Source of the DNA: an uncultured Flaviramulus sp. | GTDB lineage: Bacteria > Bacteroidota > Bacteroidia > Flavobacteriales > Flavobacteriaceae | DNA: 64,000 bases | NCBI GenBank assembly: GCA_947487155.1 | Contig: CANKVS010000007.1 | Location: forward strand, 17,020-81,019 | Direction: 5' to 3' | In this document: piece by piece, positions 9,602-27,466 of the stretch | Position numbering within the stretch: the first letter of the stretch is position 1 | Layout of the letters: each line of letters starts with the position of its first letter | The notes under the pieces: generated by a model | What the model was told of the DNA's origin: nothing | Seen by the model: only the letters and a program-made list of their open reading frames with translations | Database searches by the model: none | Translations under genes and position numbers: made by a program

Positions 9602-9970
9602 TTACTTTACTGTTAATGTGTACTGTGGTGTTTTATTAAACGGACAGAAATATTTATAAGTCCCTTTTTTAAGTTTTACAGCTTTTGAAGATTCTGTTTT
9701 CCCGTGTTTTACCATTTGAGAAACATAAGCATCAGCAATATGGTTTTTAGGATTAGATCCATCTTTACCTTCTTCAATTAAAACTAAACCTACTTCAGCA
9801 GCAGCTTCATTATTAGACACTTCAAAAACATAAGTTCCTTCAGAAAGTGTTAATGCTTTTTGTGTAAATTCTCCTTTTGTTTGCTCTAGAGCTACTGTTT
9901 TCAAGTCTTGAGCTGTTGCAGAAAAATTGATTCCTACTAATAATACTACGATTGCAATTACTTTTTTCAT
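9602..9970 (-). CDS. Small secreted hypothetical protein.
   Basis: 122 aa with a signal peptide (MKKVIAIVVLLVGINFSATA). Function unknown. Confidence 0.55.
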   Translation of the reverse strand: MKKVIAIVVLLVGINFSATAQDLKTVALEQTKGEFTQKALTLSEGTYVFEVSNNEAAAEVGLVLIEEGKDGSNPKNHIADAYVSQMVKHGKTESSKAVKLKKGTYKYFCPFNKTPQYTLTVK

Positions 9971-10406: not shown

Positions 10407-10967
10407 TTAGTTAGCAGTTACAGTAAATTTTCCTGTTTCAACACTTGGGAAATCAACTTCAGTTTCTGCGATATGGTTTACATAATTTGTTAATGTGTTT
10501 GCCACTACATTTAAAACAATTTCTAAAATGTCGCCGTCGTTATAACCAGCTTCTTTTACTGCTTGAATAGCTTCCGTAGATACTTGCCCTCTGTTTTTTG
10601 TTACAGTTTGTGCAAATTGTAATCCTGCTTGTGTTTTTGCATCAGCAGCAATACCCTGTCTGTTTTGTTCTGTTTCTTCTATGGTTAAACCATTCATTTT
10701 TCCAATAGTTGTATGTGCAGATAAGCAATAATTACATGCGTTTTCTTCTGCAATTGCCAACGCTAATCGCTCTCTAAACTTATTGCTAAAATTCCCAGAT
10801 GCCGATAACTCTCCTAAACTTAAATAGGTTTGTAATGTTGCTGGAGAGTTTCCAAATACTTTTATTAGGTTTGGAATAAATCCTAATTTGTTTTGAACTG
10901 CATTAAACAATTCTTTCGATTTTCCTGTTGTGGTTTCTGGGTTTAATGTTTCTATTCTTGTGCTCAT
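10407..10967 (-). CDS. Carboxymuconolactone decarboxylase / AhpD-family peroxidase-like protein.
   Basis: 186 aa with a CNYCLSAHT CxxC...H core motif characteristic of the AhpD-like family. Confidence 0.7.
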   Translation of the reverse strand: MSTRIETLNPETTTGKSKELFNAVQNKLGFIPNLIKVFGNSPATLQTYLSLGELSASGNFSNKFRERLALAIAEENACNYCLSAHTTIGKMNGLTIEETEQNRQGIAADAKTQAGLQFAQTVTKNRGQVSTEAIQAVKEAGYNDGDILEIVLNVVANTLTNYVNHIAETEVDFPSVETGKFTVTAN

Positions 10968-11244: not shown

Positions 11245-12090
11245 CTATTTTTTATAGTCTTTTTTAAACTGAAGTGGGGATTTTAATGTTGCTTTTTTGA
11301 AGAATCGTGTAAAATAAGCCGAATCATTAAAACCTATATCGTAAGCAATTTCCTTTACAGAATCATCGGTGTAAATTAATTGACGCTTAGCTTCTAAAAT
11401 AATTCTATTTTTTATGAAATCGCTTGGGGTTTGTGTGCCTATTTTTTGAAAGTGTTTTGTTATAGATTTTGGAGACACACCTAATCTATTTGCATAATCG
11501 GTTACAGAATGAAGGGTTTTAAAATTCTGATTTACCAACAAGCTAAAATCTTTAAACAATTTGGTCTCTTCATCGTTCTTAATTATATGATGTTCTTTTT
11601 TAACCCGAACCGAATGTATTATAAATTGTTTTAAGTACGATTGAAGCATATCGTATTGTGCCGTTTCGTTACGTTTAAACTCGTCTATTAAACTTTCTAA
11701 AATAAAATCGAGTTTTTTGGTATCGCTTTCGCAAGGTTTTACAAAAGGGGTTTCATAAACATTATTAAAAAGCACACCGTTGCAAGCCACCTCTTTATCG
11801 TGTGTTTGAATACAATAAAAATCGCGAATAAAAGTAAGCTTATAAGCGGCTTTAATTTTTTCTGAATCTACTTGAAAAACCTGCCCTGGCGACAAGAAAA
11901 AGAGCACATTATCTGTAAAAGAATAACTTTTAAAATCTATATTATAAGTACCCTTGCCTTCCTTAATCCAATAAATACTATAGGCATCAACTTGATTGGG
12001 CTTTTTAAATACGCATGCTTTTTCAAATTTAATTTCGCTAAGCGAAAAAATATCTTTGTATATATACGTTGAAATATCTTGAACAGCCAT
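11245..12090 (-). CDS. AraC-family transcriptional regulator.
   Basis: C-terminal HTH_AraC region (SVKEIAYDIGFNDSAYFTRFFKK); 281 aa. Confidence 0.8.
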   Translation of the reverse strand: MAVQDISTYIYKDIFSLSEIKFEKACVFKKPNQVDAYSIYWIKEGKGTYNIDFKSYSFTDNVLFFLSPGQVFQVDSEKIKAAYKLTFIRDFYCIQTHDKEVACNGVLFNNVYETPFVKPCESDTKKLDFILESLIDEFKRNETAQYDMLQSYLKQFIIHSVRVKKEHHIIKNDEETKLFKDFSLLVNQNFKTLHSVTDYANRLGVSPKSITKHFQKIGTQTPSDFIKNRIILEAKRQLIYTDDSVKEIAYDIGFNDSAYFTRFFKKATLKSPLQFKKDYKK

Positions 12091-14231: not shown

Positions 14232-14528
14232 ATGTTTATTGCTCAAAAACAGAACATTATGCAAAAACCTACTACGAATAAACCTACTTTAATACCTAAA
14301 ATGTACTGTAATCTTTTCGGACATGACTTTCAAGTAACTAAAAAAGTAACTTACCACGTTAAGGAATATACGTGCAACCACTGCAAAAAACAATTAACCA
14401 CAAACAGTAACGGAAGTTTAATTGAGCTTACCCCAAAGTTTAGAGAGATTAATGCCATTTTAGAACGCATCCACAACTCGAAAATGCTACGTTCAAAGAA
14501 AAAAATGGTCGGTTCATCGATTTATTAA
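14232..14528 (+). CDS. Small Cys/His zinc-ribbon-like protein, paralog 1. The start is more likely the ATG at 14301 (MYCNLFGHDFQ...).
   Basis: It shares C-x-x-FGH-D/N ... C-x-x-CKKQLTT ... LTPKF-EIN-LERI with 14603-14851, and more distantly with 20757-20954. Confidence 0.6.
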   Translation: MFIAQKQNIMQKPTTNKPTLIPKMYCNLFGHDFQVTKKVTYHVKEYTCNHCKKQLTTNSNGSLIELTPKFREINAILERIHNSKMLRSKKKMVGSSIY

Positions 14529-14602: not shown

Positions 14603-14851
14603 ATGAAAAACATTCATTGCAAGGTGTTTGGTCATGATTTTCAAGTAACAAGACATGTAACATATCATGTTAAAGAATATGCATGCAAAAACTGCAAAAA
14701 ACAATTAACCACAAGTAGCAATGGTGGTTTAACCGACCTAACGCCTAAGTTTAAAGAAATTAATGATGTGTTAGAACGCATTTATTACAAACGCACTACT
14801 AGAGTTAATAGACAGCCAATAAATCCTAACTTATTAGTTTTTAAGCATTAA
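14603..14851 (+). CDS. Small Cys/His zinc-ribbon-like protein, paralog 2.
   Basis: About 65% identical to paralog 1 over the core (HCKVFGHDFQVTRHVTYHVKEYACKNCKKQLTTSSNGGLTDLTPKFKEINDVLERI). Confidence 0.6.
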   Translation: MKNIHCKVFGHDFQVTRHVTYHVKEYACKNCKKQLTTSSNGGLTDLTPKFKEINDVLERIYYKRTTRVNRQPINPNLLVFKH

Positions 14852-15887
14852 AATTTTTCCAGCCTTGTGCTTTTAATGGTATTCTAGATTCTGCTCTAGT
14901 TACTAAATGCATACCAGCTTCTGCTTCTCTCATAAACCCTACAACTGTAAAATTTGGGTTTGCCTTTATTTTAGAGTAATCGTCTTGAGAAATTGTAAAC
15001 AAAAGTTCGTAGTCTTCACCGCCATTTAAAGCAACCGTCGTACTATCTATATTAAATTCTTCACAGGTAGAAATAACAACAGGATCTAAAGGGATTTTTT
15101 CTTCATATAAATCGCAACCAACATTACTTGCTTTGCATAAATGTATTATTTCAGAAGAAAGCCCGTCGCTAACATCAATCATCGAAGATGGTTTTACATC
15201 TAAATCTTTCAATAACTCAACAATATCTTTACGTGCTTCTGGCTTTAATTGGCGTTCAATAATATAAGAATACGCATCTAAATCGGGTTGACTATTAGGG
15301 TTTACTTTATAAACTTCTTTCTCTCGTTCAAGAACTTGCAACCCCATATATGCACCACCTAAATCGCCAGTTACAACAAGTAAATCGTTAGGTTTTGCAC
15401 CATTTCTGTAAACCTCATCATCATCTTCAACTTCACCAATAGCTGTTACCGAAATTAGTAATCCTGTAGTAGAAGACGTGGTATCGCCACCAACTAAATC
15501 TATGTTATAAATATTGGCTGCTGTTTCTATTCCAGCATATAAATCTTCAAGGGCTTCTAAAGGAAATCTATTCGACACAGCAATAGAAACTGTTATTTGA
15601 GTTGCCTTAGCATTCATTGCATAAACATCAGACAAATTAACCATAACCGCTTTATAACCTAAATGCTTTAAGGGCATATAACTTAAATCGAAATGAACAC
15701 CTTCAACAAGCAAATCGGTTGTAACCACAATTTTTTTGTTTTCAAAATTTAAAACTGCCGCATCATCACCAATAGCTTTAACGGTCGATTTATGATTGAT
15801 TTTAAACTTTTCTGTTAAATGATCTATAAGTGCAAACTCACCTAAATCACTTAATTGCGTGCTTTGTTGATTTTTATCTTCTATCAT
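14841..15887 (-). CDS. thiL: Thiamine-monophosphate kinase.
   Basis: AIR-synthase-related fold (PurM-like N and C domains) and a ThiL-type N-terminus (LGEFALIDHL...IGDDAAV). Confidence 0.8.
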   Translation of the reverse strand: MIEDKNQQSTQLSDLGEFALIDHLTEKFKINHKSTVKAIGDDAAVLNFENKKIVVTTDLLVEGVHFDLSYMPLKHLGYKAVMVNLSDVYAMNAKATQITVSIAVSNRFPLEALEDLYAGIETAANIYNIDLVGGDTTSSTTGLLISVTAIGEVEDDDEVYRNGAKPNDLLVVTGDLGGAYMGLQVLEREKEVYKVNPNSQPDLDAYSYIIERQLKPEARKDIVELLKDLDVKPSSMIDVSDGLSSEIIHLCKASNVGCDLYEEKIPLDPVVISTCEEFNIDSTTVALNGGEDYELLFTISQDDYSKIKANPNFTVVGFMREAEAGMHLVTRAESRIPLKAQGWKNFNA

Positions 15888-16160: not shown

Positions 16161-17411
16161 TTGCAAAGAATGAACATTTTACAAAGCAACCTTTCTATAT
16201 TAAAAATTTTAATTTTTGGATGTTTTACGGTTATTACGTTTCAAAGTTGTAATGATGATGATCGTCCTGTTAGCAACACGTCTACAATAGTACCTTGCGA
16301 AAATGGGTTTGCTGATATATACCCTTGTAACGATTACGATTTAATGGCTCAAGTTCCATTAGCTACTTTTGGAGCTGCTGCAGGAAATGATTCTTGGGGT
16401 TGGACAGACCCTACCAACGGTAAAGAATATGCTTTAATGGCAACCAACACAAACGTTGTATTTGTAGACATAACAGACACTACAAATCCCATTTATTTAG
16501 GAAACGTACCAACAGCAACTATTAACAGCTCATGGCGAGATGTAAAAGTTTATAACAATCATGCATTCATTGTTGCAGATAATGCCGATAACCATGGCAT
16601 GCAAGTATTTGATTTAATGCGATTACGCAATGTGGCAAACCCACCAGAAGTTTTTGCTCCCGATGCACATTTAACCGATTTTGGAAGTGCTCATAACATT
16701 GTTATTAATCATGATAGCGGCTACGCCTATGTTGTTGGTACAAACAGAAATGACACGTATGCGGGAGGGCCTTTGTTTATAAATATTCAAAATCCAACAG
16801 CCCCAATATTTGAAGGCGGTTTTGGTGAAGGCGGCTATTCTCACGATGCCCAAGTGGTTACCTATGCTGGTTTAGATACCGATTATACTGGTCGTGAAAT
16901 ACTTATTGGAAGTAACGAAAATGAAGTTGTTATTGCTGATGTAACAGATAAATCGAATCCTATTAAAATTTCAGATATAAGTTATAGTAATGTAAGATAT
17001 GCGCATCAAGGGTGGTTTACCGAAGATATGAAGTATTTTATATTAGGTGATGAATTAGATGAACTACGAGTAGGAAATAATACCCGAACTCTTATTTTCG
17101 ATTTTACAGATTTAGATGCACCTGCGTTTCATTTCGATTACATAGGACCATCGGCAGCTATAGACCACAATGGCTATGTAAAAAACAATAGCTACTATTT
17201 TGCAAACTATAGAGCTGGATTAAGAGTTCTTGATATTTCTCAAATTGAAAATAGATTGTTTACCGAAATTGGTTTTTTTGACACATATCCAGAAAATGAT
17301 GGAACCGATTTTGATGGTGCTTGGAATGTCTATCCCTATTTCCCTAGCGGAAATATTATAATTAGCGATATTAATAGAGGGCTTTTTGTAGTTAGAAAAA
17401 GTGGTTCTTAA
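16161..17411 (+). CDS. Secreted lipoprotein with LVIVD-type beta-propeller repeats (choice-of-anchor B-like).
   Basis: Signal peptide followed by a Cys at the lipobox. It has repeated hydrophobic-hydrophobic-x-D blade motifs (AFIVADNADN, YAYVVGTN, VVIADVTD, YFILGDELDE, IIISDINRGLFVV). Confidence 0.6.
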   Translation: MQRMNILQSNLSILKILIFGCFTVITFQSCNDDDRPVSNTSTIVPCENGFADIYPCNDYDLMAQVPLATFGAAAGNDSWGWTDPTNGKEYALMATNTNVVFVDITDTTNPIYLGNVPTATINSSWRDVKVYNNHAFIVADNADNHGMQVFDLMRLRNVANPPEVFAPDAHLTDFGSAHNIVINHDSGYAYVVGTNRNDTYAGGPLFINIQNPTAPIFEGGFGEGGYSHDAQVVTYAGLDTDYTGREILIGSNENEVVIADVTDKSNPIKISDISYSNVRYAHQGWFTEDMKYFILGDELDELRVGNNTRTLIFDFTDLDAPAFHFDYIGPSAAIDHNGYVKNNSYYFANYRAGLRVLDISQIENRLFTEIGFFDTYPENDGTDFDGAWNVYPYFPSGNIIISDINRGLFVVRKSGS

Positions 17412-17422
17412 AGCTTTTTGCT

Positions 17423-18781
17423 ATGCAAATAAGTAATAGAAAATACACACTACTATGCAAAACTATTTTTGCCTTTACTTTAGTTTTTAATTGTTCAACA
17501 AAAAATGAACCTGTAGAAGTTCCTGGTGATTTTCAAACAGAAATTAATGACATAATAACGTTAGGTGGTACAAAAAACGAAAGCGCACAAGCCATTACTA
17601 AAACTTCAGATGGTGGTTATGCCATTTTAGGATATACGCAAAGTTTAGATGGTGATGTAGAAAATAAAACCAACGAATCTTACGACTATTGGTTATTAAA
17701 ATTTAACGCAACCAACACCTTACAATGGCAAAAAACATTTGGTGGGAGTGATGACGATAGAGGACGTAGTTTATTACAAACTAACGATGGTGGTTATGCC
17801 CTTTTTGGTTACTCTCAAAGTACAGATGGCGATATTACAGAAAATGCCGGTGCTAGAGATTTCTGGATGTCTAAATTAGATGGTTCTGGGAATATCTCTT
17901 GGCAAAAATCTTATGGTTTTTCGGGGGCAGATGATGGGATTTCAATTATTCAAACTAATGATAATGGTTATCTTTTAACTGGCGTTATAGATGTTTCAGC
18001 ATCTGGCGGGCAAGGTAATAGCAAAACAACTTTAGCAAAAAGACACGCTGGTGGCGACTATTGGGTTATTAAACTTAATGCAGCAGGCAACAAACAATGG
18101 AGTAGGTATTTTGGGGGTACATTTACAGATACGCCTTACGATGCCATTCAAACTGAAGATAATGGTTATATTATTGTAGGCTCGTCAGATAGTAACGATG
18201 TAGATATTAAAAACAACAAAGGCTCTTATGATTTTTGGATTATAAAAATTTCTGAAACAGGCACATTAATTTGGGAAAAGTCTTTTGGAGGTTCGGAAGT
18301 TGATGAAGCCCAAGCCATTACCAAATCTTCCGATGGCAATTATGTTATTATTGGTGATACTAGAAGTAGTGATTTAGACGTTTCTAAAAATAAAGGAGCT
18401 GCCGATTTATGGATGATTAAAATCTCGCCTTCGGGCACGTTAATTTGGGAAAAAACATTTGGTGGCAGTAGTTTTGATTCTGGTTGTTCTATCTCCAACA
18501 CACAAGATGACGGGTTTATAATTTCGGGAAGTTCTCGAAGTTCTGATGGTGATCTTACAAACAATCAGGGTCAAAACGACGTTTGGGTTTTAAAAACGAA
18601 CAATCAAGGCGATTTACAATGGCAAAAAACCATTGGTGGTTCCAATATCGATTTTGCTTTTGATAGTATTGAACTCGATAACGGAACCGTTATCACCGTA
18701 GGTGAATCTGCAAGTTCTGATGCCGATATATTAGAAAACAAAGGCTTTACCGACGCACTAATTTTTAAAATAAACCGATGA
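17423..18781 (+). CDS. Secreted beta-propeller repeat protein (about 8 repeats of roughly 55 aa).
   Basis: It has a recurrent ...W(Q/E)K(T/S)FGGS..D.......T.DGGY...G.S.S.DGD... unit. Its stop overlaps the start of the next gene (ATGA). Confidence 0.6.
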   Translation: MQISNRKYTLLCKTIFAFTLVFNCSTKNEPVEVPGDFQTEINDIITLGGTKNESAQAITKTSDGGYAILGYTQSLDGDVENKTNESYDYWLLKFNATNTLQWQKTFGGSDDDRGRSLLQTNDGGYALFGYSQSTDGDITENAGARDFWMSKLDGSGNISWQKSYGFSGADDGISIIQTNDNGYLLTGVIDVSASGGQGNSKTTLAKRHAGGDYWVIKLNAAGNKQWSRYFGGTFTDTPYDAIQTEDNGYIIVGSSDSNDVDIKNNKGSYDFWIIKISETGTLIWEKSFGGSEVDEAQAITKSSDGNYVIIGDTRSSDLDVSKNKGAADLWMIKISPSGTLIWEKTFGGSSFDSGCSISNTQDDGFIISGSSRSSDGDLTNNQGQNDVWVLKTNNQGDLQWQKTIGGSNIDFAFDSIELDNGTVITVGESASSDADILENKGFTDALIFKINR

Positions 18782-19539
18782 AAAAAATAATCTACATACT
18801 TATAGTAACACTGTTATTTTCTTGTCATACTGATAATGATGATAATGTGTTTCAAGTTAACACAACATTCAACTTTATTCATTATTGGGATGACACTAAA
18901 GTAACCAATACCGATTTTAATACCATTCAATATACCAATGCAAATGGCGAAGAAATGAGTATTGAAAAACTACGCTATTTAATTTCAAAAATTACGTTTC
19001 AAAAATCAACAGGAGAAACCTTTGTGCTCGATGGTTATAATTTAGTCGATGTTACAAACGGCACCAATTTATCGTTTACATCCACTACAACAGTTCCAAC
19101 GGGCGATTATACTAACGTAGTTTTTACCTTTGGGTTTAATAACGACGATAATGCTGCTAATTACCAAGACTTAAATTCTGCATCTTGGAGCGTTCCTGCA
19201 ATACTTGGTGGAGGGTATCATTTTATGCAATTAGAGGGGAAGTTTATTGACAATACAACAACTGAAACAGGGTATGCATATCATGCTATTAGAGCGGTAG
19301 ACAATTCTAAAACACCGCAAGAATTTCAAGATACATTTATTGAAGTTGACCTAGGTGAAGTATCCATTACAAAAGAAGCTACATTTGAAATTAAAATGAA
19401 TATTGCCGAATGGTTTAAAAGTCCAAATATTTGGGATTTGAATGTATTAAACAATATGTTAATGCCTAATTTTAATGCTCAAGTCATGATTTTTGAAAAT
19501 GGGCAAAATGTTTTTAGTTTAGAATCTATAACACAATAG
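18778..19539 (+). CDS. MbnP-like periplasmic lipoprotein (partner of a di-haem peroxidase).
   Basis: 253-aa lipoprotein (LFSC lipobox) translationally coupled to the upstream gene and immediately upstream of a di-haem CCP. Its size and context match MbnP-MbnH pairs. Confidence 0.5.
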   Translation: MKKIIYILIVTLLFSCHTDNDDNVFQVNTTFNFIHYWDDTKVTNTDFNTIQYTNANGEEMSIEKLRYLISKITFQKSTGETFVLDGYNLVDVTNGTNLSFTSTTTVPTGDYTNVVFTFGFNNDDNAANYQDLNSASWSVPAILGGGYHFMQLEGKFIDNTTTETGYAYHAIRAVDNSKTPQEFQDTFIEVDLGEVSITKEATFEIKMNIAEWFKSPNIWDLNVLNNMLMPNFNAQVMIFENGQNVFSLESITQ

Positions 19540-19557
19540 TTTTTTTAAAATGAACTG

Positions 19558-20622
19558 ATGAAAAAATGGCTGTTCCATATTAGTTCTCTTTTTATTTTCA
19601 TTTGTTTATCATGTTCAAATGAAAGTACAAATGAATACGTTCCAACACCAAGTCCTTTACAAATTCCGCAATTTTTTCAAGACAATATTCTAAATCCTAT
19701 TATCCCAAATAGTAATCCACAAACTATTGAAGGTATTACTTTAGGAAAAAAACTATTTTTCGATCCTATTTTATCGGGAGATAATACGCAAGCCTGTGCC
19801 GATTGTCATGCTCCAGAACATGCGTTTTCTGATACCGATAGGTTTAGTGACGGTATTGACGGCATTGTAGGTAATCGTAATTCCATGCCCCTATTTAATT
19901 TAGCATGGAATTATGATGAAAAATTTTTTTGGGATGGTAAATCATTTAGCTTAGAGCATCAAGCATTTGTGCCTGTTACTAGCCCAATTGAAATGAAAAG
20001 CACATGGCAAGAGGTAGCACAAAAATTGCAACAACATTCAGAATATCCCAATCTGTTTAATCAAGCATTTGGCACATCAACAATCGATTCAACATTGGTA
20101 ACAAAAGCTATTGCTCAATTTGAAAGAACTTTAATTTCATCAAATTCAAAATTCGATAAACATCTTTTAAGTGGAGCCACTTTAACCCCAGAAGAACGCA
20201 ATGGTTTTAATGTGTTTATGGATGAAACCAAAGGCGATTGTTTTCATTGCCACGGCAGTGATAAAAACCCGCTTTGGACCGACAATATTTTTCATAACAA
20301 CGGCTTAAATGCAATCATTACAGATTTAGGATTAGGTGCAGTAACTGGAGACCCTGCAGATAATGGAAAGTTTAAATCGCCATCATTACGAAATCTAGCG
20401 TTTACAGCACCTTACATGCACGATGGCAGGTTTGCCACACTCGACGAGGTTATTAATCATTATAGCGAAGGCTTGAAAAACTCAACAACAATTGATCCTT
20501 TAATGAAAAAAGTAGCTCAAGGAGGTGTGCAACTTTCGGCACAAGACAAAGCCGATTTAAAAGCTTTTTTATTATCGCTTTCAGATTATGAGTTTATAAA
20601 TAATCCTAACTTTAAAAATTAA
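19558..20622 (+). CDS. Di-haem cytochrome c peroxidase family protein (MbnH/MauG-like).
   Basis: Two CxxCH haem-binding motifs (CADCH and CFHCH) with CCP-family spacing; 354 aa with a signal peptide. Confidence 0.8.
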   Translation: MKKWLFHISSLFIFICLSCSNESTNEYVPTPSPLQIPQFFQDNILNPIIPNSNPQTIEGITLGKKLFFDPILSGDNTQACADCHAPEHAFSDTDRFSDGIDGIVGNRNSMPLFNLAWNYDEKFFWDGKSFSLEHQAFVPVTSPIEMKSTWQEVAQKLQQHSEYPNLFNQAFGTSTIDSTLVTKAIAQFERTLISSNSKFDKHLLSGATLTPEERNGFNVFMDETKGDCFHCHGSDKNPLWTDNIFHNNGLNAIITDLGLGAVTGDPADNGKFKSPSLRNLAFTAPYMHDGRFATLDEVINHYSEGLKNSTTIDPLMKKVAQGGVQLSAQDKADLKAFLLSLSDYEFINNPNFKN

Positions 20623-20756
20623 AAGTTCCTACTTATAGAAGCTAAAATTTATAGTTGAATTTTAAAACCTTAACGCATTTCATCGAAAAAACAAACGCTT
20701 TCATCTATTATTTAAAAGATTTTGTTATGTTTATCTCCCCCTAAGAATTAATTATT

Positions 20757-20954
20757 ATGAAATCTAATCTAGCAACAAACCTACATTGCTCAGCTTTTGG
20801 TCACAATTATTTTCTAGTAAATAAATTAAATAATAACATATCGAGCTTAGTTTGCAAATGCTGTAAAAAGCATTTTATTTCTAAAGCAAATGGTGAAATT
20901 TTAAGCATTTCTATAGGTCATAATAACGTAACACCTTTAGTAGAATACCTATAA
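20757..20954 (+). CDS. Small Cys/His zinc-ribbon-like protein, paralog 3 (divergent).
   Basis: HCSAFGHNYF...CKCCKKHF pattern, the same C-x4-H ... C-x2-C arrangement as 14232-14851. Confidence 0.5.
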   Translation: MKSNLATNLHCSAFGHNYFLVNKLNNNISSLVCKCCKKHFISKANGEILSISIGHNNVTPLVEYL

Positions 20955-20980
20955 AATAGCTAAACAACTACTATCAAAAT

Positions 20981-21022
20981 ATCAATTTCTTTTACAGTAA
21001 TTTCAAACAAAAAATAGTATAA
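20981..21022. repeat. 42-bp conserved element, copy A (atcaatttcttttacagtaatttcaaacaaaaaatagtataa).
   Basis: 40 of 42 nt identical to 32901-32942. Both copies lie in long AT-rich regions upstream of plus-strand operons. Confidence 0.7.
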
Positions 21023-21197
21023 GGTTTTACAAACCTCATTCATTTCTTTTTACTCTTTATTAAAATAATACAGGCTCATTAAAGTCAATAAATAAAACCT
21101 ATAAAACCATATACCAATATAATGTTAGGTTATATGGTAATAGTTGACTTATATTGTATATTTGCAGTCTATTTAGACGAAATCCATATAAATAATT

Positions 21198-21527
21198 ATG
21201 ATTAAAGTTTCTGAAACAGCTAAGAAAAAAGTTATTGAACTTATGCAAGATGAAGGATTTAACCCTACAACAGACTATGTGCGTGTAGGTGTTAAAAGTG
21301 GCGGTTGTTCTGGTTTGTCGTACGATTTAAAGTTCGACAAAGAAAATCAAGAAGACGATAAGGTTTTTGAAGATAATAATGTAAAAATTATTGTTGATAA
21401 AAAAAGCTTTTTATACTTAATAGGAACAACTCTTGAATATTCTGGAGGACTAAACGGAACTGGTTTTGTATTTAATAACCCTAACGCAAACCGTACTTGT
21501 GGTTGTGGTGAAAGTTTTTCGTTATAG
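21198..21527 (+). CDS. Fe-S cluster insertion protein (HesB/IscA/SufA/ErpA family).
   Basis: 109 aa with the C-terminal CGCGESF signature. Confidence 0.85.
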   Translation: MIKVSETAKKKVIELMQDEGFNPTTDYVRVGVKSGGCSGLSYDLKFDKENQEDDKVFEDNNVKIIVDKKSFLYLIGTTLEYSGGLNGTGFVFNNPNANRTCGCGESFSL

Positions 21528-21565
21528 TTTAAATGTTGAAAGTAGGCACGTTTAAAAGTTAATAA

Positions 21566-21937
21566 ATGGCAAAGTTTAATTCTTTTGAAGAAATTATTTC
21601 TTGGCAAAAAGCAAGAGCATTAAACAAGACTATTTACAACATAACAAATAATAACCCCTCTTTTTCCAAAGATTTTGGATTAAGAGATCAAATAAGAAGG
21701 TCTAGTATTTCAATATCTTCCAATATTGCTGAAGGATTTGAAAGACAGACCACAAAAGAGTTTATTCGTTTTTTATATATAGCAAAAGCATCTGCTGGAG
21801 AATGTCGTTCTCAATTATATCTAGCATTTGATTTAAAATATATAAATGATGATGATTTTAATACATTAAAGTTAAATGTAAATGACATTTCAAAAATGAT
21901 AAGTGGATTAATAAAATATCTTGATTCCACTTTATAA
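21566..21937 (+). CDS. Four-helix-bundle protein (23S rRNA intervening-sequence protein family).
   Basis: WQKAR...GLRDQIRRSSISISSNIAEG motif. Paralog of 721-1083. It lies between the sufA-like gene and sufB. Confidence 0.8.
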   Translation: MAKFNSFEEIISWQKARALNKTIYNITNNNPSFSKDFGLRDQIRRSSISISSNIAEGFERQTTKEFIRFLYIAKASAGECRSQLYLAFDLKYINDDDFNTLKLNVNDISKMISGLIKYLDSTL

Positions 21938-21967
21938 CATTTAACTTTACAACATTAAAACAAATTT

Positions 21968-23416
21968 ATGTCGAAGTATACCGAAGATGATTTACGCGAA
22001 GAGCTAAAAACCAAAGAATATGAATATGGTTTTTATACTGATATAGAATCTGAAACATTTCCTATTGGTTTAAATGAAGATATTGTACGCGCTATTTCTA
22101 AAAAGAAAGAAGAACCACAATGGATGACCGATTGGAGATTGGACGCTTTTAAGGTTTGGAAAGATATGGCAGAACCTGATTGGGCAAATGTTAATTATGA
22201 AAAACCCGATTTTCAAGGTATTGCATATTACTCTGCTCCAACAGCAGTAGACCCTAATAAAACATTAGATGATGTAGATCCTGATTTATTAGCAATGTAT
22301 AAAAAATTAGGAATTTCTATTGATGAGCAGAAAAAGATGAACAATGTTGCTATGGATATTGTTGTAGATTCTGTTTCAGTTGCAACTACATTCAAGAAAA
22401 CATTAGGCGAAAAAGGTATTATTTTTATGAGTATTTCTGAGGCTATTAAAGAGCATCCAGAACTTGTAAGGAAACATTTAGGAACTGTAGTTCCTACAAA
22501 AGATAATTTTTATGCCGCTTTAAATTCGGCTGTATTTAGTGATGGAAGTTTCTGTTACATTCCAAAAGGTGTTCGTTGCCCAATGGAATTATCGACTTAC
22601 TTCAGAATTAATCAAGCAGGAACAGGTCAGTTTGAAAGAACGCTAGTAATTGCTGATGAAGGGAGTTACGTAAGCTACCTTGAAGGTTGTACCGCACCAA
22701 GTCGTGATGAAAACCAATTACACGCAGCAGTTGTAGAGTTAATTGCTTTAGATGATGCAGAAATTAAATATTCAACTGTACAAAACTGGTATCCTGGAAA
22801 TGCAGAAGGCAAAGGTGGTGTTTACAACTTTGTAACCAAACGTGGTTTATGCGAGAAAAACGCAAAAATCTCTTGGACACAAGTAGAAACAGGGAGTGCA
22901 GTGACTTGGAAATACCCAAGTTGTATCTTGAAAGGTGACAATTCTGTTGGTGAATTTTATTCAATTGCAGTTACAAATAATTATCAACAAGCCGATACTG
23001 GAACGAAAATGATTCATTTAGGTAAAAACACCAAATCAACCATCATTTCAAAAGGTATTTCAGCAGGAAAATCACAGAACAGTTATAGAGGATTAGTGCA
23101 AGTAAGCTCAAGAGCAGAAAACGCTCGTAATTTTTCTCAATGTGATAGTTTATTAATGGGTAATGAATGTGGTGCACATACATTCCCATATATAGAAGCT
23201 AAAAATAAATCAGCAAAAATAGAACACGAAGCGACTACTAGTAAAATTGGTGAAGATCAAATTTTCTATTGTAATCAACGTGGTATAGATACTGAAAAAG
23301 CCATTGCTTTAATAGTAAACGGATTTAGTAAAGAAGTTTTAAATAAGCTTCCTATGGAATTTGCTGTTGAAGCTCAAAAATTATTAGAAATAAGTTTAGA
23401 AGGAAGTGTTGGGTAG
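21968..23416 (+). CDS. sufB: Fe-S cluster assembly scaffold protein SufB.
   Basis: 482 aa with conserved SufB/SufD beta-helix core motifs. Confidence 0.9.
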
Positions 23417-23423
23417 TCACTTT

Positions 23424-23478
23424 TTGTCATTCCCTAGTTTAACTGAACGCAGTCGAAGTAAAAGCAGGAATCTCATTA
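23424..23478. repeat. GTCATTCCC-type intergenic repeat (Bacteroidetes REP-like).
   Basis: tgtcattccc...gcaggaatctca, related to the composite hairpin at 30519-30578. Confidence 0.5.
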
Positions 23479-23501
23479 ATTGAATCGAAAATATTAAGAA
23501 A

Positions 23502-23936
23502 ATGAAAAAAACATTTTTTATAGCATTAACTCTATTAGTTGGTATTTCAGCATTAATAAGCTGTAAAAAAGACGCTAAATCAGACGTTCAAAAAGAGGTA
23601 ATAGGTACAGACAGTCAAGAAAAAACAGAAAAACAAAATGATGGATTAACCTTATTAAAAGGAGAATTTGTTTATTATAAAGATGCTGCCGTATTACAAA
23701 CTCATGCTAACATTTATGGTGTATTTGTTACAGATAAAATGCTTGAGTTAAACAAACTAGCAGAGAAATATAAAAAAGAACCAACAGATATGGTTCCTGT
23801 TGAAATAAGAGGTAAAATCACTAACAAAAAAGATGATAAAATTCTTTGGGAAAATAAAGTTGAAATAGTAGAGATTCTAAATATTTCTAAACCTAAATCT
23901 GAAGAAAATAACGTTGTAAAATTAGGAAGCGAATAG
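23502..23936 (+). CDS. Hypothetical lipoprotein inserted between sufB and sufC.
   Basis: 144 aa with signal peptide and lipobox (LISC). Its stop overlaps the sufC start region. Confidence 0.55.
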   Translation: MKKTFFIALTLLVGISALISCKKDAKSDVQKEVIGTDSQEKTEKQNDGLTLLKGEFVYYKDAAVLQTHANIYGVFVTDKMLELNKLAEKYKKEPTDMVPVEIRGKITNKKDDKILWENKVEIVEILNISKPKSEENNVVKLGSE

Positions 23937-23937
23937 T

Positions 23938-24690
23938 ATGTTAAAAATAAATAATTTACACGCAAGTGTTGACGACAAAGCAATTTTAAGAGGTATTAAT
24001 TTAGAGGTAAAACCTGGTGAAGTTCATGCCATTATGGGGCCAAACGGTTCTGGAAAAAGCACCTTAGCATCAGTAATTGCTGGAAAAGAAGAATACGAAG
24101 TAACAGAAGGAAGTATTGAATTTAAAGATGAAGACATTGATGAATTAGCAGCCGAAGAACGTGCTCATAAAGGTGTGTTTTTATCATTTCAATACCCTGT
24201 AGAAATCCCAGGCGTATCGGTTACCAATTTTATTAAAACAGCAATAAACGAATCGCGTAAAGCACAGGGATTAGAAGACATGCCTGCCAAAGACATGCTA
24301 AAATTAATTCGCGAAAAAGCAGATTTATTAGAAATAGACAGGAAGTTTTTATCACGTTCGTTAAACGAAGGGTTTTCTGGAGGAGAAAAAAAACGTAACG
24401 AAATTTTTCAAATGGCGATGTTAGAACCTAAACTTGCCATTTTAGACGAAACGGATTCTGGTTTAGATATTGATGCCCTTCGTATTGTTGCAAACGGTGT
24501 TAACAAGTTAAAAAATAAAGATAATGCCACTATTGTTATAACGCATTACCAACGTTTGTTAGATTATATCGTTCCAGATTTTGTACACGTTTTATACAAT
24601 GGTAAAATTGTAAAATCGGGCACAAAAGAATTGGCTCACGAACTTGAAGAAAAAGGATACGATTGGATTAAAGAAGAAGTAAATGCCTAG
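23938..24690 (+). CDS. sufC: Fe-S cluster assembly ATPase SufC.
   Basis: Walker A GPNGSGKST, ABC signature and Walker B; 250 aa. Confidence 0.92.
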   Translation: MLKINNLHASVDDKAILRGINLEVKPGEVHAIMGPNGSGKSTLASVIAGKEEYEVTEGSIEFKDEDIDELAAEERAHKGVFLSFQYPVEIPGVSVTNFIKTAINESRKAQGLEDMPAKDMLKLIREKADLLEIDRKFLSRSLNEGFSGGEKKRNEIFQMAMLEPKLAILDETDSGLDIDALRIVANGVNKLKNKDNATIVITHYQRLLDYIVPDFVHVLYNGKIVKSGTKELAHELEEKGYDWIKEEVNA

Positions 24691-24698
24691 TTAGTATG

Positions 24699-24844
24699 CA
24701 GTATTCAGTCTTCAGTTAGCAGTCGCTTTCTCAATATCTGATTACGCTTACTAATCTATTCAAAATAAAACAGTAATAAAATATACGGTTTTAGTAATGC
24801 TTTTTTTGACTGCTTACTGAAGACTGATCACTGAAGACTGACAC
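24699..24844. repeat. Inverted-repeat element between sufC and sufD.
   Basis: The left arm cagtattcagtcttcagttagcagtc pairs with the right arm gactgcttactgaagactgatcactg at about 23 of 26 positions, with about 85 bp between them. The right arm also carries a direct repeat of actgaagactga. Confidence 0.6.
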
Positions 24845-24845
24845 A

Positions 24846-26159
24846 ATGGATTTAAAAGAAAAATTATTATCATCCTTTTTAGTATTTGAGAACAAAGTAG
24901 ATATTGATACTTATGTTCACGATGTTAGAAATGATGCTATAAAAGCTTTTGAAGAAAAAGGATTTCCAACTAAAAAAGAAGAAGCTTGGAAATACACCTC
25001 TTTAAACAAAATATTAAAAGAAGATTATAGTCTTTTTCCAAAGCAGGAAAATGCCTTAGAATACAAAAACATTAAAAAGTATTTTCTTTACGATATAGAT
25101 ACTTATAAAATTGTGTTTATAGATGGCAAGTACTCTTCACACCTATCGCAAACTACACACGACGGTATGGATGTTTGCTTAATGTCGGCAGCCCTAACAA
25201 AGCCTAAATATCGCTTAATTATTGAAAACTATTTTAATAAAGCCGCTACCAAAGATAGCTTACCATCGTTAAATACAGCATTTTCAAGCGAAGGCGCCTA
25301 TATTCATATTCCAAAAAACAAATTGGTTGAAAAGCCAATTCAAATTATACACTTTTCTACAGGAAATGAATCTGCAATTATGTTACAACCACGTAACCTA
25401 ATTGTTGTAGAAGAGAATTCGCATGTGCAAATCATAGAGCGTCATCAAAGTTTAACAAATAATGCCGTTTTAACCAATAGTGTTACCGAAATATTTGCTA
25501 AAAAACGAGCTATTGTTGATTATTACAAAATACAGAACGACAATAAAGATGCCTCTTTAATAGACAACACATTTATTAAACAAAAGCAAGAAAGTATTTG
25601 CTCTGTACATACATTTGCCTTTGGTGGCAAATTAATACGTAATAATCTTAACTTTTATCAAGAAGGAGAACGTATCGATTCTATATTAAAAGGTGTTACT
25701 ATTTTAAGCGACAAACAACATGTAGATCATAATACCCTGGTACATCATATAGAACCCAATTGTGAAAGTCATCAAGACTATAAAGGCATTTTTGGCGAAA
25801 ACTCAACAGGTGTTTTCAATGGTAAAATAATTGTTGAAAAAGAAGCACAAAAAACCAATGCCTTTCAAGCCAATAACAATATTTTAATAAGCGATAAAGC
25901 AACTATAAACACCAAACCTCAGCTCGAAATTTTTGCAGACGATGTTAAATGTTCACACGGTTGCACCATTGGACAATTAGACGAAAGTGCTATGTTTTAT
26001 ATGCGTTCGCGGGGAATTCCAGAAAAAGAAGCCAAAGCCCTTTTAATGTATGCCTTTAGTAATAACGTATTGAGTTCGGTTAAAATTCCAGAAATGAAAC
26101 AACGCATCACTAAAATTATTGCCAATAAATTAGGAGTAAATATTGGCTTCGATTTATAA
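24846..26159 (+). CDS. sufD: Fe-S cluster assembly protein SufD.
   Basis: 437 aa with a C-terminal SufBD beta-helix region; position after sufC. Confidence 0.85.
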   Translation: MDLKEKLLSSFLVFENKVDIDTYVHDVRNDAIKAFEEKGFPTKKEEAWKYTSLNKILKEDYSLFPKQENALEYKNIKKYFLYDIDTYKIVFIDGKYSSHLSQTTHDGMDVCLMSAALTKPKYRLIIENYFNKAATKDSLPSLNTAFSSEGAYIHIPKNKLVEKPIQIIHFSTGNESAIMLQPRNLIVVEENSHVQIIERHQSLTNNAVLTNSVTEIFAKKRAIVDYYKIQNDNKDASLIDNTFIKQKQESICSVHTFAFGGKLIRNNLNFYQEGERIDSILKGVTILSDKQHVDHNTLVHHIEPNCESHQDYKGIFGENSTGVFNGKIIVEKEAQKTNAFQANNNILISDKATINTKPQLEIFADDVKCSHGCTIGQLDESAMFYMRSRGIPEKEAKALLMYAFSNNVLSSVKIPEMKQRITKIIANKLGVNIGFDL

Positions 26160-26218
26160 AATTATTTGAAGCTATTTCCCGCTATCCACTGTATCTTTTT
26201 CTCGTACCTCAAAAAAGG

Positions 26219-27466
26219 ATGCCGTTTCTATCGGGGCTAGACATAAACGCTATGTTCAACGTAAACGACATAAGAAAAGACTTTCCCATTCTTTCACGTA
26301 AAGTAAATGGTAAACCTTTGGTGTATTTAGATAATGCAGCAACGTCACAAACACCTCAACACGTTATAGATATTATTGTATACTATTACTCAAACTATAA
26401 CGCCAACATTCACCGTGGTGTACACACCTTAAGTCAAGAAGCTACCGATTTATACGAACAAGCACGTATTAAAATTCAAAATCATTTCAATGCTAAATTT
26501 TCTCATGAAATCATACTAACATCAGGAACAACACATAGTATTAATTTAGTAGCAAATGGGTTTTCAGCACTATTAAAAAAAGACGATGAGGTTATTGTTT
26601 CAGCTTTAGAGCATCATAGTAATATTGTGCCTTGGCAAATGTTATGCGAGCGTACAGGTGCTATTTTAAAAGTTATCCCAATGAACGAAGCTGGCGAGTT
26701 GGAAATGGCTGAATACAACAATTTACTTTCAGAAAAAACAAAATTGGTTTTTGTAAATCACATCTCAAATGCTTTAGGTACCATAAATCCTATTGAATAT
26801 ATTATTGAAAAAGCACATGGTGTTGGTGCTGCTGTTTTAATTGATGGTGCGCAATCATGCCCACATATAAAACCCGATGTTCAAAAATTAGATGTCGATT
26901 TCTATGTCGCTTCAGCACATAAAATGTGCGGACCAACAGGCGTTGGTATGCTTTACGGAAAAGAAGAATGGCTCAATAAATTACCTCCATATCAAGGTGG
27001 TGGCGAAATGATTGCCGAAGTCACTTTTGAGAAAACAACTTACGCTAATTTGCCTCATAAATTTGAAGCAGGAACTCCAAATATTGCTGGAGGAATTGCC
27101 TTTGGAGCAGCTATAGATTATATGAATGGTATTGGTTTCAATGCTATTGCTTTATACGAAAACGACCTGCTAACCTATGCTACCAAAAAACTATCACAAA
27201 TAGATGGATTAAAAATTTACGGAACATCTAAAAACAAAACATCCGTCATTTCATTTAATTTAGAAGGTATTCATCCTTACGATGTGGGCACCATTTTAGA
27301 TAAATTAGGAATTGCTGTTCGTACTGGTCATCATTGTGCACAACCTATTATGGATTTTTTCTGTATCCCAGGAACCGTAAGGGCTTCATTTGCATTTTAT
27401 AACAAAAAAGCAGAGATAGATATTTTGGTAGAAGGTATAAAAAAAGCAAAAATAATGTTGGGCTAA
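26219..27466 (+). CDS. sufS: Cysteine desulfurase, SufS subfamily (class V aminotransferase).
   Basis: PLP lysine motif SAHKMCGPTGVG and active-site Cys in GHHCAQP; 415 aa. Confidence 0.9.
   Translation: MPFLSGLDINAMFNVNDIRKDFPILSRKVNGKPLVYLDNAATSQTPQHVIDIIVYYYSNYNANIHRGVHTLSQEATDLYEQARIKIQNHFNAKFSHEIILTSGTTHSINLVANGFSALLKKDDEVIVSALEHHSNIVPWQMLCERTGAILKVIPMNEAGELEMAEYNNLLSEKTKLVFVNHISNALGTINPIEYIIEKAHGVGAAVLIDGAQSCPHIKPDVQKLDVDFYVASAHKMCGPTGVGMLYGKEEWLNKLPPYQGGGEMIAEVTFEKTTYANLPHKFEAGTPNIAGGIAFGAAIDYMNGIGFNAIALYENDLLTYATKKLSQIDGLKIYGTSKNKTSVISFNLEGIHPYDVGTILDKLGIAVRTGHHCAQPIMDFFCIPGTVRASFAFYNKKAEIDILVEGIKKAKIMLG

Follow-up and report, generated by a model that had tools for sequence, protein, structure and literature searches.

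A cluster of four co-oriented lipoprotein genes in DNA from an uncultured Flaviramulus sp. (Flavobacteriaceae; contig CANKVS010000007.1 of assembly GCA_947487155.1, of which a stretch of 64,000 nucleotides was analysed, hereafter the window) encodes, in order, a choice-of-anchor B beta-propeller, an SBBP-like beta-propeller, a protein with the fold of MbnP and a di-haem cytochrome c enzyme. Our preferred explanation, with about an even chance of being right, is that Flavobacteriaceae conserve these genes as a cell-envelope lipoprotein operon whose core is a divergent version of the MbnP/MbnH “metallo-mystery pair”. To our knowledge, such pairs are widespread and only the methanotroph pair has been characterised. 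The defining chemistry of that pair is the oxidation of one Trp to kynurenine, which creates a Cu(I) site. The abundant marine lineage described here combines an intact di-haem enzyme with loss of the target Trp and its neighbouring Met, in a pair locked to two propeller lipoproteins; it is thus a natural setting in which to ask whether such pairs serve in general to form kynurenine or have this as one function among others. The evidence counted in favour of our explanation comprises the family and fold assignments, a MauG-type Tyr in the di-haem enzyme, the conserved gene string, a link to the Alteromonadales, the joint decay of the cluster in Formosa agariphila and a CusB/HMBD context in a related locus.

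The tight packing of the four genes described in an earlier note on this DNA was confirmed by reading the junctions, which gave spacings of 11 bp, −4 bp (a 4-bp ATGA overlap) and 18 bp. Every product begins with a signal peptide and a Cys lipobox as read from the sequence (FQSC, VFNC, LFSC and CLSC in gene order). For the first gene, the ATG at 16170 is a likelier start than the listed TTG at 16161. The G+C content of the cluster (~34%) is ordinary for the window. The earlier note had also proposed looking for co-occurrence of the four genes in Bacteroidetes, and this proved productive: a scan with one genome per species yielded 80 loci, all from Flavobacteriaceae, with 47–76% identity to the MbnP-like protein. 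The same order holds in all 80 wherever the flank suffices, namely thiL on the minus strand, one to three choice-of-anchor B copies, the SBBP propeller, the MbnP-like gene and the di-haem gene, followed by sufA–sufB, and the cluster lies between thiL and sufA wherever both flanks are covered. The string spans ~20 genera, including Tenacibaculum, Polaribacter, Winogradskyella, Formosa and Lacinutrix. Because the order recurs in all 80 loci with sufficient flank, the four-gene arrangement is not a product of chance.

The 253-aa protein matches the Pfam MbnP family (PF20243) with 99.4 bits (E 3e-28, gathering threshold 27, profile positions 4–181 of 189). An AlphaFold2 (AF2) model built from a 108-sequence alignment of diverse representatives reached a predicted local distance difference test (pLDDT) score of 95.2, compared with 33 from the single sequence. 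Foldseek comparison of this model with the PDB returned only the six chains of 7L6G, the MbnP of Methylosinus trichosporium OB3b (E 6e-7 to 3e-6), with nothing else below 0.03. For residue comparison, the 7L6G sequence was recovered via a Methylocystis MbnP from a plasmid record, after which canonical MbnPs were collected and aligned (alignment A3). A profile–profile comparison with 31 canonical MbnPs gave a probability of 97.8% (E 9e-13). Given the Foldseek match to 7L6G and the profile–profile score, homology to MbnP is secure. Identity to the M. trichosporium protein is 11–14%, and PDB sequence and profile searches with the 253-aa protein gave no match. The family identity itself is not new, since NCBI already labels close homologues “MbnP family protein”. 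The pair assignment made in the earlier note stands at the level of family and fold, with the Pfam MbnP match on one side and MbnH as the best model of the di-haem protein on the other; it does not extend to a canonical MbnP. The 253-aa protein has no match to TIGR04052 (MbnP_like_WxW, cut-off 140 bits) or to any other NCBIfam model, even at E 10, and its sole Cys is the lipobox C16, so the four-Cys motif of canonical MbnP is absent.

The copper ligands of MbnP are a His, a Met, a solvent molecule and Kyn174, and Trp174 lies within a conserved WxW motif (review PMC11951088). In alignment A3, the invariant residues of canonical MbnP include L168, M173, W175, W177, H158, H208 and G210, together with the cysteines C49, C214, C226, C269 and C278. 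In close homologues the WxW motif is numbered W175-N-W177, consistent with the first Trp as the kynurenine precursor. Kynurenine is reportedly formed from the first Trp of WxW in the 2021 work of Manesis and colleagues. In the window's protein, the canonical L-[ND]-x3-M-x-W core reads L-N-S-A-S-W137-S-V139 and the M-x-W-x-W core reads W-S-V-P-A (W137–A141); no intact WxW is present under either of two possible registers. With broad or M-x-W profiles of the family, hhalign pairs W137 with Met173 and V139 with Trp175, and further along H169 with His208 and I171 with Gly210. With a profile of W-N-W relatives, the register shifts by two, so that W137 pairs with the first Trp and Met has no counterpart. 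We favour V139 as the probable equivalent of the first Trp because this register runs without gaps from L132 (equivalent to L168) and pairs up the Leu, Met and Trp positions. For the close-clade profile by itself, the alignment to canonical MbnP stops at residue 136 (probability 51%), and the core was mapped via the broader profiles.

Residue counts over 193 distinct close orthologues extend these observations to the whole clade. V139 is found in 191 and I171 in 192 of them, H169 in all 193 and W37 in 190; position 137 is Trp in 169 and Phe in 24. H35, H148, M150, H169, M207, W212 and W219 are essentially invariant. The 24 loci or sequences with Phe137, from Winogradskyella, Bizionia, Hyunsoonleella, Tenacibaculum and Polaribacter, all have an intact di-haem gene and no Trp in either register. 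These counts bear on the most direct reading of the cluster, put forward in the earlier note, in which MbnH-type chemistry acts on the 253-aa protein: one of its Trp residues becomes kynurenine, which together with His and Met makes up a Cu(I) site. Family and fold agree with that reading, as do the MbnH-like di-haem enzyme with its Tyr ligand, the alignment of H169 with the invariant His of canonical MbnP and, under the W-N-W profile, the placement of the widespread W137 at the first Trp of WxW. Set against this are the missing TIGR04052 match and the missing cysteines, Val at the Trp position and Trp or Phe at the Met position in the gapless register, and, in the other register, replacement of the Trp by Phe in the 24 cases above with no counterpart of the Met. 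We consider a canonical system quite unlikely. Because these 24 loci or sequences keep the di-haem gene with no Trp at either position, the conclusion is the same whichever register is adopted: as judged from the aligned residues, the published kynurenine/Met/His copper site cannot form as described in this clade. Thus, of the Trp, His and Met residues that the earlier note singled out for checking, the His (H169) is kept and the Met and Trp of the M-x-W core are gone, W/F-x-V standing in their place.

The change was also set against 108 representatives of the Bacteroidota family. The residues M137, W139, H169 and G171 (numbering of the window's protein), which constitute the canonical Met-x-Trp ... 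His-x-Gly pattern, are present in 81 of the 108, and the window's protein and its 27 closest representatives have W/F137, V/I/L139, I/T171 and W37. The states W139/G171/[V,I]37 and V139/I171/W37 covary over this set, and we infer W37 as a candidate substitute oxidation target. One relative that still bears W-D-W-P and H-M-G (W139/G171) carries the same four genes beside thiL; hence, the propeller association is older than the loss of W139. The cluster has decayed in Formosa agariphila KMM 3901 (L174 6968-7783), where the MbnP-like gene stands alone between thiL and sufA, both propellers and the di-haem gene having been lost, and this remaining copy carries H148Y, H169Y, W137L and V139I. This suggests that H148 and H169 matter only while the partner genes are present. 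Similar His-to-Tyr changes were seen in four other representatives (P0156, P0162, P0166 and P0169).

The two haem motifs of the di-haem protein reported in the earlier note, CADCH and CFHCH, are present at residues 80 and 228, and the inter-haem Trp, W125, lies in the sequence FWDG. Two CxxCH motifs and an inter-haem Trp are also found in classical peroxidases. The protein matches Pfam CCP_MauG with 190 bits; its best NCBIfam model is TIGR04039 (MbnH, 262.8 bits), followed by MauG (188 bits, cut-off 444). In a PDB search, the top score was to 6E1C (167 bits), which we take to be the MbnH structure, with classical cytochrome c peroxidases (CCPs) at 100–135 bits and MauG at ~95. The C-terminal half scores 85 bits with MbnH, 39 with MauG and 28–37 with classical peroxidases. 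The axial ligand of the second haem is Tyr294 in MauG and Met in classical peroxidases. The HMMER alignment to the MauG chains, which ends at ...AILFYNK296, matches Tyr302 of the window's protein to MauG Tyr294 as well as to the Tyr of 6E1C. Tyr302 shows no variation in 73 of 73 Flavobacteriaceae orthologues, in the 35 partners (35/35) of W139-type MbnP-like proteins and in gammaproteobacterial and Methylocystis MbnHs, 113 relatives having been examined in all; both haem motifs and Trp125 are invariant in the same three sets. The di-haem protein is a MauG/MbnH-type enzyme, with Tyr ligation of the second haem predicted from the alignment. A classical H2O2-detoxifying di-haem peroxidase was considered and rejected because of the Tyr in the ligand column and the higher scores to MbnH than to classical CCPs. 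The earlier note had allowed for the outcome that the 253-aa protein fails MbnP searches and its partner groups with classical bacterial CCPs; what emerged is a PF20243 match, the 7L6G fold and an MbnH-like enzyme with Tyr302.

Based on these features, we propose a plausible mode of action for the cluster. Like MauG and MbnH, the di-haem enzyme would use H2O2 to reach a high-valent state, and its role would then be to oxidise a residue in a partner protein rather than to detoxify peroxide. The MbnP-fold protein may still handle a metal, most likely copper, through the invariant residues H35, H148, M150, H169 and M207; the published Met/His/kynurenine site would have no part in this, since its Met and Trp have been lost. 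The choice-of-anchor B propeller, with its four invariant His motifs, would be a functional partner, as either a metal recipient or a second substrate. The oxidised residue would be non-canonical, the candidates being W37, W137 where present, W212/W219 or a residue of the propeller. As one specific form of this idea, the di-haem enzyme may have been retargeted, away from the kynurenine of the published MbnP copper site and towards a new modification site. That site could be on the choice-of-anchor B propeller or on the MbnP-fold protein itself, where W37, acquired along with the loss of W139, would be an example. We regard retargeting as a tentative possibility; if true, it would imply that a surface complex common to most marine Flavobacteriaceae contains a protein-derived cofactor or metal site not yet described.

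The two propellers differ in how far they can be classified. The first had been described as an LVIVD-repeat lipoprotein. A lipobox-bearing propeller was borne out (FQSC, followed by NDDD), and the match to the Pfam LVIVD repeat is weak (E 0.055); the protein is a strong member of the NCBIfam choice-of-anchor B family (TIGR04312, 556.6 bits, cut-off 100, model positions 1–364 of 364). Across both phyla (Flavobacteriaceae and Gammaproteobacteria), the invariant residues of this domain comprise two Cys, four His in AHN, YxHD, HxGW and DHNG motifs, a DExDE motif and several Trp and Tyr. These conserved residues probably form a putative metal or active site. PDB searches with the sequence and with its profile found no solved relative. 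The second propeller had been predicted to have about eight blades; it consists instead of seven repeats of ~58 aa, starting near residues 44, 102, 160, 226, 284, 342 and 400, with the pattern W-x-K-x-[FY]-G-G-S ... D-G-G-Y. Its sole family match is weak (NF047494, the LipL53 SBBP family, 57.8 bits, cut-off 400), reflects similarity at the level of the repeat and is accompanied by no Pfam family above threshold.

Relatives of the choice-of-anchor B propeller were sought beyond the Flavobacteriaceae. In a tblastn search of 72,556 plasmid and chromid records, only two matched, both from Pseudoalteromonas xiamenensis, and in each the choice-of-anchor B gene is divergent and beside a canonical MbnP. 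In the first record, this MbnP scores 152.6 bits with TIGR04052 (cut-off 140) and has the motif M-F-W-T-W, and the MbnH scores 503 bits with TIGR04039 (cut-off 363); in the second, the gene table gives an MbnP and no MbnH. In Parashewanella spongiae, two choice-of-anchor B genes are divergent from an MbnP/CCP pair. As in the window, the TIGR04312 propeller of P. xiamenensis and P. spongiae stands immediately beside MbnP/MbnH and shares the invariant residues. The gammaproteobacterial propellers differ, however, in their divergent orientation, their length of 640–900 aa and their multi-domain build with Calx-beta repeats and a C-terminal anchor; their MbnP is canonical (M-F-W-T-W, with Cys), and they have no suf or thiL neighbours and no SBBP propeller, which is absent from the gammaproteobacterial loci examined. 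The presence of choice-of-anchor B next to canonical MbnP/MbnH in gammaproteobacteria argues for a real functional link, and this otherwise uncharacterised family gains its first recurrent functional neighbour, in two phyla. The association is recurrent and not obligatory. One gammaproteobacterial choice-of-anchor B gene (L171 660-7680) has as its neighbours an imelysin (Peptidase_M75), a DHOR di-haem oxidoreductase and an iron-type ABC transporter, DHOR being a second kind of di-haem neighbour for the family.

These neighbourhoods, together with the conserved residues, raise the alternative that the propeller is the substrate of the MauG-like enzyme, in which case the cluster would serve the maturation of a surface propeller enzyme with a protein-derived cofactor, and the MbnP-fold protein would act as adaptor or metal chaperone. 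The relationship would resemble that of MauG to methylamine dehydrogenase, or that of the MauG gene beside a copper-dependent methanethiol oxidase. The methanethiol oxidase is said to be a propeller enzyme with an adjacent MauG gene, and we counted it as a precedent. Also consistent with this alternative are the strict retention of a di-haem enzyme with predicted Tyr ligation despite loss of the partner's canonical Trp, the recurrence of choice-of-anchor B with MbnP/MbnH in two phyla, and the invariant Trp, Tyr and four His motifs, which suggest an active site. We nevertheless hold it to be unlikely: any modification of the propeller would be conjecture, choice-of-anchor B genes mostly lack a di-haem neighbour, pairs of the W139 type work without a propeller, and the propeller has no detectable similarity to SBP56 or to dehydrogenase heavy chains. 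A direct relationship of choice-of-anchor B to SBP56/methanethiol oxidase was rejected on the same ground, namely that no similarity is detectable at the sequence level. Should the propeller prove to be a metal enzyme served by the pair, this would suggest a surface activity of the ecologically dominant bacteria of algal blooms.

Returning to the operon built around a divergent MbnP/MbnH pair, comparison with known systems defines where it departs from them. In the M. trichosporium OB3b system, too, the gene for an MbnP-fold periplasmic protein of ~250–300 aa immediately precedes that for a MauG-like di-haem enzyme with a Tyr ligand; the structure of this enzyme, 6E1C, is the best PDB match of the window's di-haem protein, and the invariant His is kept (H169 = His208). 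In the window, by contrast, both members of the pair are lipoproteins preceded by two beta-propeller genes, the cluster lacks methanobactin genes and a TonB-dependent transporter, the MbnP-fold protein lacks the TIGR04052 match and the four-Cys motif, and the di-haem protein reaches 263 bits against an MbnH cut-off of 363. Methylamine dehydrogenase biogenesis by MauG (formation of tryptophan tryptophylquinone, TTQ) shares the His/Tyr haem and the inter-haem Trp, and in that system the enzyme oxidises Trp residues of its partner. The mau gene cluster also encodes a beta-propeller protein. The window differs in lacking a MauA-like small subunit, amicyanin and mauDEF, and in having a partner with the MbnP fold.

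Nearer relatives are the M-x-W-P ... H-x-G MbnP/CCP pairs of Bacteroidota, from a Chondrinema litorale plasmid and from rumen and gut metagenomes, which belong to the same Pfam family and alignment block as the window's pair. They have in common with it GGGYH-x-M, W212, N241, the order of MbnP then CCP and the Tyr ligand. These pairs keep the canonical Met, Trp and Gly and have no propeller neighbours, whereas the window's clade has W/F137, V139, I171 and W37. The Chondrinema W139-type proteins match TIGR04052 weakly (49–52 bits), and the window's protein does not match it at all; the C. litorale plasmid carries two MbnP/CCP pairs, both without propellers. In 80 metagenomic loci of the W139 type, MbnP is followed by the di-haem gene in ~55, and the flanks of the pairs are housekeeping genes, uninformative on function. 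At one locus (L175 7001-10269), a W139-type MbnP-like gene and then two di-haem genes lie between a CusB/HMBD heavy-metal resistance-nodulation-division (RND) efflux system and FeoAB, and an ArsR-type regulator is close by; no other locus seen in the Bacteroidota family has so clear a metal context. Many Bacteroidota MbnP-like proteins (P0184, P0204, P0222, P0172, P0164, P0155, P0154, P0148 and L175 6992-7861) carry a short N-terminal module EGCTDxxAxNY(x6-8)DDGSC after the lipobox, and the window's MbnP-fold protein is without it.

Several points weigh against the explanation that we prefer. Copper binding by the MbnP-fold protein is a conjecture, the canonical Met and Trp being missing. The di-haem protein falls under the MbnH equivalog cut-off (262.8 versus 362.85 bits). 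The residue register relative to 7L6G, as a predicted correspondence, depends on profile alignment and varies with the profile used. Seven choice-of-anchor B loci from Gammaproteobacteria or other groups were examined, and in five of them MbnP/MbnH is absent from the neighbourhood (Kangiella, three Pseudomonadota metagenome-assembled genomes or metagenome contigs, and one Anaerolineae); the locus with imelysin and DHOR is among these five, and none of the 80 metagenomic W139-type loci contains a propeller. Finally, gene order shared inside one family mostly reflects common descent and is a weak guide to function.

The position of the cluster raises one more alternative, in which it is an iron or oxidative-stress accessory of the suf Fe–S operon, the di-haem protein removing periplasmic H2O2 and the other three being unrelated surface proteins. 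Wherever a locus reaches sufA, this gene lies directly downstream of the cluster in the same orientation, with a gap of 10–31 bp in four loci and ~105 bp in most, and co-transcription with suf is possible; the gammaproteobacterial choice-of-anchor B gene beside imelysin, DHOR and an iron ABC transporter also fits an iron-related role. We nonetheless judge this alternative very unlikely: the predicted second-haem ligand is Tyr rather than Met, the best scores are to MbnH and MauG, and MbnP/CCP pairs with no suf genes beside them recur in other Bacteroidota as well as in Proteobacteria. In the window itself, the spacer between the di-haem gene and sufA is 575 bp long and holds a small open reading frame (ORF) of its own, and the promoter and terminator calls are uninformative, 31 promoter-like sites being found where 29 are expected and one terminator-like site where 2.8 are. 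A k-mer search of the spacers between thiL and choice-of-anchor B found nothing beyond the thiL −7 box.

Searches for literature on choice-of-anchor B, on LVIVD with peroxidase and on MbnH in Bacteroidetes found nothing relevant. The searchable literature, which does not cover the neighbourhood analysis of the 2021 paper, contained no large MbnP clade that lacks the kynurenine precursor and has a di-haem enzyme, no conserved four-gene Flavobacteriaceae architecture and no cross-phylum neighbourhood of choice-of-anchor B with MbnP/MbnH. The statement in the earlier note that the context is uncharacterised agrees with this; the arrangement is not unique to the window, however, since it recurs across Flavobacteriaceae and, for the choice-of-anchor B part, in Alteromonadales.

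Coordinates of the cluster, its diagnostic codons and neighbouring features in the window.
Feature	Position	Strand	Remarks
Choice-of-anchor B (LVIVD-type) beta-propeller lipoprotein	16170..17411	+	listed ORF 16161-17411, 416 aa
Seven-repeat SBBP-like beta-propeller lipoprotein	17423..18781	+	452 aa
MbnP-fold lipoprotein, non-canonical	18778..19539	+	253 aa; without M-x-W (WxW) core, without four-Cys motif
Codon W37	18886..18888	+	Trp marking the clade without W139
Codons W137-S138-V139	19186..19194	+	position of canonical M-x-W core; codons verified
Codons H169-A-I171	19282..19290	+	counterpart of canonical invariant H-x-G
MauG/MbnH-type di-haem cytochrome c enzyme, lipoprotein	19558..20622	+	354 aa
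Haem motif CADCH	19795-19809		
Haem motif CFHCH	20239-20253		
Codon Tyr302	20461..20463	+	predicted axial ligand of second haem
thiL	14841-15887	-	flank of cluster
Spacer between di-haem gene and sufA	20623-21197		
65-aa Cys-rich ORF	20757-20954	+	inside the spacer
suf region	21198-27466	+	same orientation as cluster
23S rRNA intervening-sequence protein family gene	21566-21937	+	between sufA and sufB
Two small DUF1660-like ORFs	14232-14528, 14603-14851		just past thiL
Cupredoxin-like protein gene	9602-9970	-	~6 kb upstream of cluster
CMD/AhpD-like protein and AraC-type regulator genes	10407-10967, 11245-12090	-	adjoining the cupredoxin-like gene

Within the Flavobacteriaceae loci, choice-of-anchor B is duplicated or triplicated in tandem in several genera, at L015, L029, L040, L053, L056, L069, L073–L075 and L079; L040 (Bizionia) has three copies, and the other three cluster genes stay single-copy. 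In the complete genome of Lacinutrix neustonica (L028), thiL, choice-of-anchor B, SBBP, the di-haem gene and sufB all appear split into several ORFs, which looks like frameshift-rich sequence due to assembly quality rather than biology.

Downstream of the cluster, the genes are, in order, sufA, a gene of the 23S rRNA intervening-sequence protein family (a four-helix bundle; PF05635, 134 bits), sufB, sufC, sufD and sufS; the Wocania locus (L001) lacks the intervening-sequence gene between sufA and sufB. The 65-aa product encoded in the spacer ahead of sufA has the pattern HC...H...CKCC and no Pfam match. Two small DUF1660-like ORFs lie on the other side of the cluster, just past thiL. Further upstream, a cupredoxin-like protein gene (PF13473, 35 bits) adjoins genes for a CMD/AhpD-like protein and an AraC-type regulator, and this trio is syntenic in Wocania (L001).

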